Shown: in pieces, positions 14,275 to 17,432 of the stretch
How the letters are laid out: every line of letters starts with the position of its first letter
Numbering within the stretch: position 1 is the stretch's first letter
Program-made: the position numbers and the translations under genes
Notes under the pieces: model-generated
What the model was told of the DNA's origin: nothing
The model's database searches: none
Seen by the model: only the letters and a program-made list of their open reading frames with translations
DNA from: an uncultured Chloroflexia bacterium
Lineage (GTDB): Bacteria > Chloroflexota > Anaerolineae > UBA4142
DNA length: 24,000 nt
NCBI GenBank assembly: GCA_963718225.1
Contig: CAVQYN010000019.1
Location: 253,994-277,993, forward strand
Reading direction: 5' to 3'

Positions 14275-15252
14275 TTATGTGCGCGTCATTTGTGATAATG
14301 ACAACCCGGCGCGCCAGAGATAATACAAACCCAGCAAGGTCACCGGCAAAAAGAGCGTTGCGTGCAGAACCAAGGTGTAACTTGTCGCCAGGTTTTGTTC
14401 GACGCCGAACGCCGTCAACACGTACACAATCGGCGCGTCAAAGACGCCCACATAACCCGGCGTGCTCGGCGCAATCGTCACGAGATTGGCGAACGCGCAC
14501 GCGAGCAAAAAGACCGGAAATGATAGCGTAATGCCAAAGCCCCATGCAATTACCACGTACATCGCTGTTTCAAAAAGCCACGCAATAATCGATAGCGCAA
14601 AGACGGCAAAGGAATCGGCGGGGCTACGCAGAACGCCTAATCCTTCCAAGAGCGAATGCGTGAGCCGCGTCGCGCGTTCACGCCACGCTGCCCGCGGCAA
14701 CCGCGCGACAAAAAAATCGACGAGACGTTCGGTGCGGCGCGGCATACCGGCGAGAATTGCCAAGCCGATGATTGCGGCAATCAAAATCGCGGCAACGAGA
14801 CGCAGGCGCATCGTTTGCGATTCATCGGCAAAGTTGAGCAAGAACGATGCGATGACGATGAACGTCAGCATCGTCAAGCCATCGAAAATGCGCTCGACGA
14901 CAATCGTAACCAACGTTGCGGCTTTGCTGACATTCTCTTGCGCGCTCAAGACAAACGTACGGACCACTTCGCCGAGCCGTGCCGGCAAGATATCGTTTGC
15001 CATGTAGCCGATCACGACGGCGCGAAAGAGCGTGCCGAAGGCAATCGGCTTGATCGAACGGAGCAAGAAATACCAACGAAGCGCGCGCACGCCTACGCCG
15101 ATAAAATATAACGCCAGTGCGGGAATCAAGACCCAGTATTGCGCGCGTTGCAATGACGCGAGCATTTTGGCGGGGTCGGTTTGGTAGAACACGTACGCCA
15201 GCAAAATTAGGCTGATGACCAGACCCAGCCAGAGACCGCGTTGTTTGAACAT
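14275..15252 (-). CDS. Flippase-like / lysylphosphatidylglycerol-synthase TM-region family (UPF0104) integral membrane protein
   Basis: Polytopic membrane ORF with N-terminal blocks typical of the family: LGLVISLILLAYVFYQTDP....LIPALALYFIGVGVRALRWYFLL, GYMANDILPARLGEVVR. The ORF-track start (15309) lies inside a terminator hairpin. ATG 15270 lies inside a TGcTATGAT extended -10 element (15274-15266). ATG 15252 (MFKQRGLW..) is therefore preferred, but the start is uncertain. Confidence 0.6.
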   Translation of the reverse strand: MFKQRGLWLGLVISLILLAYVFYQTDPAKMLASLQRAQYWVLIPALALYFIGVGVRALRWYFLLRSIKPIAFGTLFRAVVIGYMANDILPARLGEVVRTFVLSAQENVSKAATLVTIVVERIFDGLTMLTFIVIASFLLNFADESQTMRLRLVAAILIAAIIGLAILAGMPRRTERLVDFFVARLPRAAWRERATRLTHSLLEGLGVLRSPADSFAVFALSIIAWLFETAMYVVIAWGFGITLSFPVFLLACAFANLVTIAPSTPGYVGVFDAPIVYVLTAFGVEQNLATSYTLVLHATLFLPVTLLGLYYLWRAGLSLSQMTRT

Positions 15253-15284
15253 TTGTCTTGTACTAATCATAGCACACATCGACC

Positions 15285-15332
15285 AAAAATAAAAGAGGCG
15301 CCAGACCACTTGTTGAGAGTGTCTGCGCCTCC
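15285..15332 (-). terminator. Rho-independent terminator after the SWIM gene
   Basis: On the minus strand, GGAGGCGCAGAC pairs with GTCTGGCGCCTC (11 bp with one bulged G) across a 14-nt loop. UUUUAUUUUU follows the stem. Confidence 0.6.
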
Positions 15333-15352
15333 AGTCTATTTAGTTGGAAAAA

Positions 15353-15601
15353 CTACCGCGTTTCCTGGCTCGGCGGCAGCATAACGCCCAGCACGCGTTC
15401 CATCGCCATCGTGTGACTGCACAAGCCGTGCGTGGCAAAATACTTGCATCCACACGACCAACGTCCGGCGTCATAAGCTACATCGTACGTACTGTTATCG
15501 CCTTCGAGCGCGACGCGGAACTGTTTGAAAACGACACGGCGGTTTTGCTCTGCCGCGTACCGCTTCGCCTTTTCGATCTTGCCGATCATGCTGGAGTCCA
15601 T
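15353..15601 (-). CDS. Small SWIM zinc-finger protein (82 aa)
   Basis: AGGAG lies 6 nt before ATG 15601. The CxCx(n)CxH signature is present as WSCGCKYFATHGLCSH. Confidence 0.6.
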   Translation of the reverse strand: MDSSMIGKIEKAKRYAAEQNRRVVFKQFRVALEGDNSTYDVAYDAGRWSCGCKYFATHGLCSHTMAMERVLGVMLPPSQETR

Positions 15602-15643
15602 GTCATTCTCCTGACGCGAGTTTGGGGTGCACAGCCGATGGGA

Positions 15644-15750
15644 CGAAAAAGCACCAGACGCGAACGCGCGTCTAGTGCTCTATGCCCAAAACCTCGTATG
15701 CCCGATCTGGCGGGCGGCTGTGCCATTCATAGTTGGATTCTGTTTCCTTG
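15644..15750 (-). ncRNA. Candidate ~105-nt leader RNA or small RNA ending in a strong intrinsic terminator upstream of the SWIM gene
   Basis: The minus-strand promoter is TTGACT (15784-15779), a 17-nt spacer, then TATACT (15761-15756). About 70 nt downstream there is a 13-bp hairpin, AGCACUAGACGCG / CGCGUCUGGUGCU (15679-15650), followed by UUUUU. The SWIM gene SD and ATG lie about 40 nt further on. The motif GGGCAUA occurs twice in the leader. No known riboswitch class was recognised. Confidence 0.35.
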
Positions 15751-15794
15751 CGCCAAGTATATGCCGATTTGGTGGAAAAGTCAAAACGAAAATT

Positions 15795-15823
15795 TTGACC
15801 CACCGTCGATTTTGTAGTAAAAT
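15795..15823 (+). promoter_or_regulatory. Sigma70-type promoter directed toward the DASS transporter gene
   Basis: TTGACC (15795-15800), a 17-nt spacer, then TAAAAT (15818-15823). Its -35 box lies 10 bp from the -35 box of the divergent minus-strand promoter. Confidence 0.55.
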
Positions 15824-15870
15824 CATTGTGTCGATGCGCGAAGACGCGCGTCAACGCAATTCGAGTGCTG

Positions 15871-15908
15871 AACGCCTCTCGAGCTATCGAGAGGCGTTTT
15901 GTTTTTTC
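15871..15908 (+). terminator. Intrinsic terminator inside the 5' leader of the DASS transporter gene (candidate attenuator)
   Basis: A perfect 12-bp stem, AACGCCUCUCGA (15871-15882) / UCGAGAGGCGUU (15887-15898), encloses the loop GCUA and is followed by UUGUUUUUU. It lies about 45 nt after the predicted TSS and about 57 nt before ATG 15966. An 8-bp hairpin precedes it (GAUGCGCG-AAGA-CGCGCGUC, 15833-15852). Confidence 0.6.
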
Positions 15909-15965
15909 GATTTTTCACTTGCCAAACGGCAAGCAGAAGAATAAATTCATTCTCATGGAGGAGAA

Positions 15966-17432
15966 ATGAAATTGAATTGGAAAGCTCTTATTCCGATTGC
16001 AGTGTGGGCCATCTTGGCGGCGTATGGCTTTTTTGTCGGTGCGCCCGCCGGACTGACGCTGAGCGCGTGGCTGTACTTTGCGCTCTTTGCCGCCGTGATT
16101 CTCGGTTTGATCTTGGAACCGATTCCCGCCGCGGCAATCGGCTTGATCGGCGTCGCGTTTGCCGCCGCAATGCGGTACGTCAATGCCGACATCACGCAAT
16201 CGGTGAACTGGGCGCTCGCCGGTTTCGCCGACACGACGGTGTGGCTCATCTTCGGCGCGTTCGTGTTCTCGATGGGCTATAACAAAACCGGTTTGGGACG
16301 CCGCATCGCGTTGATGCTCGTGCGCTGGCTCGGCGGTCGTACGCTAGGTCTGGGATACGCCATTGCGTTGTCCGACTTGGTGCTCGCGCCCGGCACGCCG
16401 TCGAACACGGCGCGCAGTGGCGGCACGGTCTACCCGGTGATTCGCAACATCCCGGCGTTGTACGGCTCGGAGCCGAATAGTCCGAGCGCGCGCAAGATCG
16501 GCTCGTACATTATGTGGACGGCGTTAGCCGCGACGTGCGTCACGTCGTCGATGTTTATCACCGCGCTTGCGCCGAATGCCGCTGCGTTGACCATCGTCAA
16601 GAATACTGCGAAGATCGACATCAACTGGGTGCAATGGTTCCAAGGATTTTTGCCGGTTGGTATCGTCTTGCTCTTGCTCGTCCCGGTGCTGACGTATTTC
16701 ATCTATCCGCCCGAAATAAAAACGAGTAAAGAAATTCCGGAATGGGCGGGCAAAGAACTCGCCAAGATGGGCAAGGTCTCGACGAAAGAACTCATCATGG
16801 TCGGATTGGTCGTTCTGGCGATCTTTTTGTGGATCACCGGCTCGAATGTCTTGTTCGCGTTGCCGTACTTTGGCACGAACTTTATCAACGCCACGACGGT
16901 GGTTTTAGTGGGCATCGCGTTGATGCTCGTCACCAACATCGTAACCTGGGATGAGATTACGAGCAACAAAGCCGCGTGGAATGTGTTGGTGTGGTTTGCT
17001 ACACTCGTCACGCTGGCGAATGGATTGAATCAGGTGGGCTTTGTCCGCTGGTTTGCAAATCTCGCCTCCGCGCCGTTGAAGGGCATGGATCCGATGATGA
17101 TTTTGGTGATCCTGGTTGTGCTCTTCTTCTTCATTCACTATTTCTTTGCATCGCTGAGCGCGCACACGAGCGCGGTCTTGCCGTTGATACTCGGCGTGGG
17201 TGTCGCGTTGTTGCCGGCGACCTTGATCATGCCCTTTGCTTTGCTCTGCGTTTACTCGTTGGGGCTGATGGGTATCCTAACACCGTACGCCACCGGTCCT
17301 TCGCCGATTTATTACGGCAGTGGTTACATCTCCCGCACCGATTTCTGGAAACTGGGATTGATCTTTGCGGTTGTTTTCGTCATCGGACTGTTGGTGATCG
17401 GCATCCCGTACTTGACGTCGATCAAACTGTAA
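15966..17432 (+). CDS. DASS-family anion permease (2-oxoglutarate/malate, citrate or tartrate:succinate exchanger-like; CitT/TtdT type)
   Basis: Intact 488-aa polytopic ORF with GGAGGAG 4 nt before the ATG. The sequence is typical of anion-permease (DASS) proteins: ..GLGRRIALMLVRWLGGRTLGLGY.., APGTPSNTARSGG, and a C-terminal repeat half with LTPYATGPSPIYYGSGY. Confidence 0.8.
   Translation: MKLNWKALIPIAVWAILAAYGFFVGAPAGLTLSAWLYFALFAAVILGLILEPIPAAAIGLIGVAFAAAMRYVNADITQSVNWALAGFADTTVWLIFGAFVFSMGYNKTGLGRRIALMLVRWLGGRTLGLGYAIALSDLVLAPGTPSNTARSGGTVYPVIRNIPALYGSEPNSPSARKIGSYIMWTALAATCVTSSMFITALAPNAAALTIVKNTAKIDINWVQWFQGFLPVGIVLLLLVPVLTYFIYPPEIKTSKEIPEWAGKELAKMGKVSTKELIMVGLVVLAIFLWITGSNVLFALPYFGTNFINATTVVLVGIALMLVTNIVTWDEITSNKAAWNVLVWFATLVTLANGLNQVGFVRWFANLASAPLKGMDPMMILVILVVLFFFIHYFFASLSAHTSAVLPLILGVGVALLPATLIMPFALLCVYSLGLMGILTPYATGPSPIYYGSGYISRTDFWKLGLIFAVVFVIGLLVIGIPYLTSIKL

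Follow-up and report, generated by a model that had tools for sequence, protein, structure and literature searches.

We analysed a stretch of 24,000 nucleotides from an uncultured Chloroflexia bacterium (GTDB lineage Chloroflexota, Anaerolineae, UBA4142; GenBank assembly GCA_963718225.1, contig CAVQYN010000019.1, positions 253,994 to 277,993), hereafter the window, which is part of contig C19 of a metagenome-assembled genome (MAG) of 3.6 Mb and 81% completeness. The subject of this report is a 364-bp spacer in the window that separates two divergent genes, one for a SWIM zinc-finger protein on the minus strand and one for a DASS transporter on the plus strand. We propose, with a probability of about 0.6, that this spacer consists of two independent cis-acting transcription attenuators that have become neighbours by chance. 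The leader of the SWIM gene would be governed by ribosome occlusion and the leader of the DASS gene by ANTAR-type antitermination. Both mechanisms are known in principle, and the two leader families themselves are outside Rfam. Both leaders appear to be attenuators of known general kinds, and neither looks like a riboswitch or a stand-alone small RNA (sRNA).

An earlier note, made from the letters of this DNA alone, had described in the spacer two back-to-back promoters that each run into an intrinsic terminator before their gene. A consensus scan, folding and our own hairpin finder recovered the two promoters and the two leader terminators where that note had placed them (Table 1), and the flanking genes are those it had named (PF04434 for SWIM; PF00939 / TIGR00785 for DASS). 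Each promoter agrees with the consensus at 10 of 12 positions, and 10 bp lie between their -35 boxes; the scan found four promoter-like sites altogether, whereas shuffled sequences average 0.6. From the promoter positions, transcription is expected to start near 15749 for the SWIM leader and near 15830 for the DASS leader. The folding energies of both leaders are well below those of shuffled sequences (z = -3.6 on the minus strand and z = -6.5 on the plus strand). An Rfam scan of the whole window at the gathering threshold gave no match, and a search of 15000-16500 at E<=10 returned only terminator-like chance matches, the best being RefA9 with 32 bits against a cut-off of 49. This agrees with the failure of the earlier note to assign either leader to a known class. 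Neither leader family is described in the literature that we found, in which no search was aimed at either family directly.

When the region was compared at the DNA level with 40 relatives, the query split at the two -35 boxes. The SWIM gene with its leader (to 15784) and the DASS gene with its leader matched different contigs in every genome. Thus, the two leaders stand back to back in this genome alone, and each of them needs its own explanation. A functional link between the two divergent promoters was considered and rejected on the same grounds. On the other hand, each leader is conserved among relatives far beyond chance. The succession of promoter, leader, terminator and Shine-Dalgarno sequence (SD), from which regulation had been suspected, therefore belongs to genuine regulatory leaders, both of which are kept in relatives.

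In the SWIM leader, the promoter is followed by an upstream open reading frame (uORF), MNGTAARQIGHTRFWA, and by the terminator hairpin, AGCACUAGACGCG-CGUU-CGCGUCUGGUGCU, which was recognized by reading the sequence and by folding. A simple terminator scanner missed this hairpin, as its tail rule wants 5 T in 8 bases; our own finder detects it. The UAG stop of the uORF runs exactly up to the stem, the first base of which is 15679. In about 20 relatives from the same family and a sister family, the promoter block ATTGACTTTT...ATCGGCATATACT is conserved and the order of the elements is kept, namely promoter, SD, short ORF, a stop codon located at the opening bases of the hairpin or within them, U tract, SD and the SWIM ATG. 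The uORFs of these genomes have AAGGAG or GAGGAG as SD, about 11 nt before the start, they begin with AUGAAUGG or AUGAGUGG (M-N/S-G-x-x-A-R...), and their stop is often UAG within AGCAC-UAG-ACGCG. Two codons of the uORF vary synonymously among family members, GG[C/U/A] at codon 3 and CG[C/A] at codon 7; in both, the change is limited to the third base. Two loci of the sister family carry an unrelated terminator sequence, GAAUCCAAG...CUUGGAUUC, in the same layout, with a 12-codon ORF that ends at the stem foot. Between the terminator and the SD (15614-15644, minus strand), most family members (loci L022-L030) have a small hairpin GGGC-N4-GCCC followed by CCCAAUU(C), which is degenerate in the window (GGCUGUGCACCCCAAAC).

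The same design, with sequences almost wholly diverged, was found in most of 80 further loci, which belong to Anaerolineae, Ardenticatenia, Thermoflexales and Longimicrobiaceae (Gemmatimonadota). Most of the 80 loci also have TTGAC..TATACT. In the Longimicrobiaceae versions the leader frame reads through the terminator, and two Dehalococcoidia loci do not have the design. With a finder that asks for a perfect stem of at least 6 bp and a T run, a hairpin of this kind precedes SWIM in 82 of 93 distinct loci, compared with 19.5% of 600 random regions upstream of long ORFs in this genome. The structure that the earlier note wished to see checked in relatives is therefore maintained on this strand, while the stem sequences vary widely among taxa. 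More importantly, the position of the uORF stop is maintained too. We took as uORF the first ATG after the -10 box, or a GTG or TTG preceded by an SD, and ignored the stop codon in making this choice. Of 71 loci, 48 have the in-frame stop between -6 and +15 nt from the stem foot; in the +1 and +2 frames the corresponding numbers are 3 and 6. In the narrower interval of -5..0 the count was 34 loci versus 2 and 2 in the other frames, and the commonest position is -1 (17 loci). Stop codons of all three kinds occur (20 UAG, 14 UAA, 14 UGA), the uORFs are 9-25 codons long, and their peptides are diverged and not conserved across orders. As far as these alignments tell, what is conserved in the SWIM leader is geometry, a stop codon at the foot of the stem, and not sequence. 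The mini-ORF stop that the earlier note had pointed out in one spacer turned out to be the defining, phylum-wide feature of the minus-strand leader.

Among the uORFs with a stop in the interval, 29 are SD-led and 15 leaderless, that is, they start no more than 9 nt after the -10 hexamer. That the frame is kept under two modes of initiation argues strongly that the uORF is translated. The leaders, truncated before the 3' arm of the terminator, revealed no conserved partner for the 5' arm, either with RNAalifold or in single folds; the only conserved helix found by RNAalifold was a small CCCG...CGGG hairpin inside the uORF. The distance from the end of the terminator to the SWIM ATG is about 28-113 nt and typically 30-65 nt, and SWIM has its own SD, which indicates that SWIM is transcribed by read-through. 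Sensing of arginine by the uORF was examined and rejected, because the Arg codons 7 and 10 of the family are not kept in other orders.

When a stop codon occupies the A site of a ribosome, about a dozen nucleotides further downstream are shielded. Given that the stop is held at the stem foot, such a ribosome would shield the lower 5' arm of the terminator, and for this reason we read the SWIM leader as a ribosome-occlusion attenuator similar to those of pyrE and pyrBI. According to this model, the minus-strand promoter would drive a short uORF whose stop lies at or just inside the 5' foot of the terminator, about 45 nt ahead of SWIM. A ribosome finishing the uORF would cover or unwind the lower 5' arm, the terminator would not form and the polymerase would read into SWIM. 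If the uORF was left untranslated, or if the ribosome lagged behind the polymerase, the hairpin would form and transcription would stop. In this way, SWIM expression would be tied to how well translation keeps pace with transcription. While the anatomy of the leader and its conservation are observed, the direction of control proposed here is what the geometry would predict, and the signal sensed might be the capacity for translation, the speed of the polymerase, stalling at the stop codon or an autoregulatory effect of SWIM on uORF initiation.

In pyrBI of Escherichia coli, the leader frame runs through the attenuator. The Longimicrobiaceae leaders resemble pyrBI in this respect, and more generally the SWIM leader shares with rph-pyrE and pyrBI an upstream frame that ends beside the terminator or runs through it, so that a close ribosome would block the hairpin and no RNA antiterminator is needed. 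When the rph stop codon is moved nearer to the attenuator loop, pyrE expression is restored, and the distance from stop to hairpin is critical (PMC4166923). The frame ending at the terminator and the lack of a conserved RNA antiterminator would place the SWIM leader with this type. However, unlike in pyrE, its uORF is a dedicated frame, sometimes leaderless, rather than the end of a real gene; it has no U-rich pause tract that would point to nucleotide sensing; and it would regulate a SWIM zinc-finger protein in Chloroflexota and Gemmatimonadota. The leaders trpL, hisL, pheL and TnaC also place a short translated ORF before a terminator and let the position of the ribosome decide on termination, and a ribosome at the stop codon would be the antiterminating state in the SWIM leader as it is in TnaC. 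In contrast to classical trp-type leaders, the SWIM leader has neither a run of regulatory codons nor a conserved 2:3 antiterminator helix, and its peptides are diverged. Moreover, reaching the stop favours termination in trp-type leaders, whereas it should prevent termination here. TnaC, on the other hand, acts on Rho and needs a conserved peptide, which the SWIM leader does not have.

We turn now to the DASS leader, of which 13 orthologues were collected and 11 aligned. The aligned leaders share the promoter TTTTGACC...TAAAAT, a hairpin with a covarying stem (P1), a GGUG box and the terminator, and both P1 and the terminator show compensatory changes. With a covariance model built from the orthologous leaders (R1), the motif was detected in 20 of the 23 family genomes, with many copies per genome. 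In this MAG there are nine copies by R1 and eleven by the refined model R2, which adds two weaker ones, with 35.0 and 33.5 bits, at G000:C19:289588-289682 (minus strand, about 11.6 kb past the end of the window) and at G000:C32:173338-173433. Only one copy lies in the window. In a class-wide sample of 121 genomes, the multi-copy signal was confined to one Anaerolineae family.

Over 72 copies, the hairpins on this strand covary, which is a further answer to the call for a check of structural conservation. P1 is paired in 91.9% of cells and four of its five pairs change on both sides; for the terminator, the corresponding figures are 94.9% and 11 of 12 pairs. None of 500 shuffles reached the observed covariation values of P1 and terminator, and slid controls collapse. 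The most conserved sequence of the motif is a second hairpin of 5-6 bp, P2, with the consensus (A/G)AGGUG-AYGAA-YGCCU(Y). P2 is 84.9% paired, its GGU/GCC core is nearly invariant, its closing pair is G-C in 27 copies and G-U in 25, and its outer pair alternates between A-U (14) and G-C (11). When the pairing of P2 was tested separately, only 8 of 2000 shuffles reached the observed value. Columns 114-121 of the alignment serve both as the loop and 3' arm of P2 and as the 5' arm of the terminator. Column 116, which is C or U, keeps its pairing with G108 and at the same time covaries with column 177, its partner in the terminator. The earlier note had proposed a weak antiterminator, UUCGAG with CUCGAG, in this very place; the alternative helix that the family conserves is P2 instead (GGUG...YGCC). 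The P1 loop has 6 nt in 25 copies, and 4 nt closed by a G-C or U-G pair in 30 copies. If it is read as a hexaloop, R-A-U-G-N-N, position 4 is G in 45 of 55 copies. In the P2 loop, a G is nearly always found at the position equivalent to 4, and the loop opens with G-A-Y-G as in P1. A leader peptide in the DASS leader was also considered and rejected: an ATG often lies in the P1 loop, but it has no SD and no conserved frame.

The genes behind the copies, as annotated with Pfam, form a respiratory and energy regulon. In addition to the DASS transporter (14 orthologues), accompanied in some genomes by an Iso_dh/tartrate-dehydrogenase-like enzyme, they encode molybdopterin oxidoreductases, NapC/NirT-type cytochromes, MtrC-like multihaem cytochromes, cytochrome bd oxidase, the small subunit of a NiFe hydrogenase, a Rieske protein, cytochrome b, cytochrome c, rhodanese, DsrE, a CoA-transferase and a haem-motif sensor kinase. 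The promoters of this set have features of their own. Several copies (L139 at G000:C32 ~68960-69010; L142, L143, L148, L130, L181) carry at the -35 region the palindrome ATTGAC-nAAA-GTCAATGACA (TTGAC-N4-GTCAA), similar to a box of the FNR/CRP type. In 15 of the 72 copies its place is taken by a direct repeat, TTTTGACC-N6-TTTGACTTG, which is also present at an operon for a kinase and a REC-ANTAR regulator (G000:C27, ~84730). These promoters suggest a second, promoter-level layer of control on the regulon.

ANTAR targets are defined by two tandem hairpins, of which the second overlaps a terminator, with loops of six nucleotides that have A in the first and G in the fourth position (PMC3369931, PMC8934654). 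The DASS motif has two hairpins, the overlap with the terminator, the G at position 4, many copies that form a regulon and a linked regulator. Three ANTAR genes (PF03861) were found in this genome, two of the REC-ANTAR and one of the GAF-ANTAR type. One REC-ANTAR gene (C27) lies beside a HisKA_2-type kinase gene, and at 8-11 kb from it two motif copies stand before a cytochrome cluster. The product of this REC-ANTAR gene matches over its full length Rv1626/PdtaR of Mycobacterium tuberculosis (1e-48) and EutV of Enterococcus faecalis (2e-37). In six genomes, motif copies are located within 12 kb of an ANTAR gene, the nearest at 0.7-1.3 kb. The antiterminators CAT_RBD, HutP and GlpP were not found in this 81%-complete genome. 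We propose that the DASS leader probably works like an ANTAR target, as a variant member of that class, and that the copies together most likely constitute an ANTAR-type antitermination regulon with variant loops. The leader would consist of P1, a linker and a P2 that competes with the terminator. The 13-bp terminator would win by default, and a dimeric RNA-binding antiterminator recognizing the similar loops of P1 and P2 would stabilize P2 and allow read-through. Whereas the motif, its copies and the regulon are observed, the binding protein can be named only as a candidate, the likeliest being the response regulator of REC-ANTAR type whose gene accompanies that of a histidine kinase close to other copies.

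The parallels with known systems extend to EutV/eut of E. faecalis, NasR/nasF, AmiR/amiE and PdtaR, in which two tandem hairpins have similar loops with a G at position 4. As in those targets, the second hairpin of the DASS motif overlaps the 5' arm of the terminator, the element is multi-copy, and a REC-ANTAR protein and its cognate kinase are encoded nearby. Unlike in those targets, G is no rarer than A at position 1, the P2 loop has 5 or 7 nt and the linker is longer and variable. In addition, known ANTAR targets concern ethanolamine and nitrogen, whereas this regulon is respiratory and the variant is confined to one Anaerolineae family.

Some observations count against the two readings. 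With regard to the DASS leader, all 23 family genomes have 1-3 ANTAR genes, so that co-occurrence with the motif cannot discriminate. Position 1 of the P1 hexaloop is G in 29 and A in 20 of the 55 copies; in P2 the loop comprises 5 nt (AYGAA) or 7 nt (GAYGAAY) rather than six, and its position 1 is G; and the linker between P1 and P2 is unconserved and measures 2-46 nt (median about 16 nt), compared with 5-12 nt in eut leaders. The window copy of P2 is itself slightly degenerate, as a G-to-A change weakens it (GAGUG for GAGGUG), and a weak promoter-like site after the terminator, TTGCCA-17-TAAATT (9/12; 15919-15947), could bypass the gate. A regulator of RNA-binding type other than ANTAR, acting through the same competition between P2 and the terminator, would accommodate loops that deviate from the A1/G4 hexaloop rule, and also a motif limited to one family when ANTAR proteins are widespread. 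We regard this alternative as unlikely, since ANTAR is the sole known antiterminator RNA-binding domain found in this genome, two similar loops suit a dimeric reader, and copies are repeatedly linked to a kinase/REC-ANTAR pair. That the leader is a riboswitch for a small molecule or ion, for instance a dicarboxylate or a redox-related metabolite, is a thought invited by a conserved structured leader with a terminator as expression platform before a transporter gene. It is nevertheless highly improbable, because no Rfam match appeared even at E<=10, about 11 copies before functionally diverse respiratory genes would be unusual for a metabolite aptamer, and conservation is restricted to the two hairpin loops and the P2 stem, with nothing like a core forming a ligand pocket.

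As for the SWIM leader, occlusion has to contend with the uORF of the window itself, whose SD, AAGGAA at 13 nt upstream, is weak. For roughly one third of the loci, a naive first-ATG rule picks another ORF or one that runs past the terminator, and, as the SWIM loci are related, the locus counts overstate independence. A translated uORF followed by a terminator is also the general layout of attenuators in which a stalled ribosome frees an RNA antiterminator, either trp/his-like or antibiotic-sensing as in vmlR and whiB7, and the Arg codons and the CCCG...CGGG hairpin kept in the family uORF would fit such a switch. Stalling of this kind seems quite unlikely to us. Neither the family alignment nor single folds contain a conserved helix with the 5' arm of the terminator, there is no run of one codon, the peptides change from order to order, and the feature that is conserved, the stop at the stem foot, is one that stalling models do not require. 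Lastly, one or both leaders might be mainly stand-alone, as an sRNA or as a micropeptide gene with its own terminator, with the downstream genes served by other promoters. A strong promoter followed by a strong terminator would indeed give abundant transcripts of about 80-105 nt, and on the plus strand the weak promoter-like site could then serve the gene. This possibility, which the earlier note had raised in the form of divergent sRNAs, is nevertheless highly improbable: across genera each leader remains with the gene that it precedes here, although SWIM and DASS are unlinked outside this genome, the gap between terminator and start is in most loci too short for a promoter and an SD-led 5' untranslated region, the uORF peptides are not those of a conserved micropeptide across orders, and the plus-strand motif heads about 11 different operons in the same orientation. 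Attenuation and protein-dependent antitermination were likewise among the options of that note, and it is these that are supported; the riboswitch is not, given that the minus-strand leader is read as codons and the plus-strand leader has the unconserved linker described above.

If these readings are right, the SWIM leader offers a clear case from nature in which ribosome occlusion by itself controls a terminator. The leader has been kept for a very long time in evolution, in SD-led and in leaderless form, and it would suit the study of transcription-translation coupling outside Proteobacteria. It also flags the SWIM mini-protein as an uncharacterised, widely conserved and tightly regulated factor. 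In turn, the DASS motif marks out about ten operons of an uncultured Anaerolineae family as a regulon and can be used directly for regulon annotation in these MAGs. It suggests that respiration, too, can be controlled by ANTAR antitermination, which up to now has been linked chiefly to the metabolism of ethanolamine and nitrogen, and that loop recognition by ANTAR proteins is looser than the A1/G4 hexaloop rule. A bolder proposal is that the SWIM leader is a dedicated sensor of ribosome-polymerase spacing, with SWIM as the effector of a new translation or envelope-stress response, and that a single kinase/REC-ANTAR pair that recognizes loops in a non-canonical way gates most of the respiratory chain of this family. 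Envelope stress is suggested by the constant neighbour of SWIM, a gene for a flippase-like LPG_synthase_TM protein. We put this proposal forward as a tentative one, which may well prove wrong.

Table 1. Features of the spacer and its flanks (window positions; minus-strand parts are given in the direction of reading where a start and an end are named).
Feature	Position	Strand	Details
Hairpin and T run after SWIM	15285..15332	-	second hairpin, bulged, with UUUUAUUUUU; directly after the SWIM stop codon
SWIM zinc-finger gene and SD	15353..15612	-	gene 15601..15353; SD AGGAG 15612..15608; ATG 15601; 82 amino acids; PF04434
SWIM leader terminator	15645..15679	-	hairpin 15679..15650; 13-bp stem (15679..15667 with 15662..15650); loop CGUU; U5 15649..15645
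uORF (leader peptide)	15680..15730	-	16 codons 15730..15683; UAG 15682..15680
SWIM leader promoter	15756..15784	-	TTGACT-17-TATACT; -35 TTGACT 15784..15779; -10 TATACT 15761..15756
DASS leader promoter	15795..15823	+	TTGACC-17-TAAAAT; -35 TTGACC; -10 TAAAAT
P1 hairpin	15830..15855	+	core GCGCG/CGCGC 15836-15840 and 15845-15849; loop AAGA, or GAAGAC (15840-15845) as hexaloop
P2 antiterminator hairpin	15863..15878	+	GAGUG-CUGAA-CGCCUC; loop and 3' arm are the first bases of the terminator 5' arm
DASS leader terminator	15870..15908	+	hairpin 15870-15899, 13 pairs, 4-nt loop: GAACGCCUCUCGAG-CUAU-CGAGAGGCGUUU; then U-rich tail, UUUUGUUUUUU
Third hairpin, A/U-rich spacer, SD and DASS start	15918..15968	+	hairpin CUUGCC-AAAC-GGCAAG 15918-15933; SD GGAGGAG 15957-15963; start 15966
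DASS transporter gene	15966-17432	+	PF00939 / TIGR00785

Relatives of the SWIM protein were found at more than 475 loci, from MAGs labelled Anaerolineae, Anaerolineales or Chloroflexota. Twelve residues are invariant, including C50, C52, C61 and H63. The protein has no sequence match in the PDB, and its AlphaFold2 model, although confident (predicted local distance difference test score, pLDDT, 87.5), has no fold neighbour there (best Foldseek E 0.7). We found no literature on its function. A hairpin with a T run follows SWIM in 72 of 94 loci, and in view of this second terminator-like hairpin SWIM is probably monocistronic. The LPG_synthase_TM gene is the conserved next neighbour in 43 loci. 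After the SWIM hairpin, a conserved TGcTATGAT at 15274..15266 (minus strand) resembles an extended -10 element, and the LPG_synthase_TM gene may thus have its own promoter. It may start at ATG 15252, nearly leaderless, or at 15270, and not at GTG 15309 of the longest ORF.

On the DASS side, only some genera conserve the third hairpin, which the weak promoter-like site overlaps, and the features around the start. Upstream of the DASS start codon, UUCAUU can pair with AAUGAA at the start codon itself, and UUCAUUCUC can pair with GAGAAAUGAA over the SD and the start, which could mask DASS translation. Outside the window, at G000:C4:17151-17744, we observed two copies of the 5' part of DASS, each about 84% identical, facing away from each other, 5 bp apart and with many indels, which represent either a decayed inverted duplication or an artefact of the MAG assembly.

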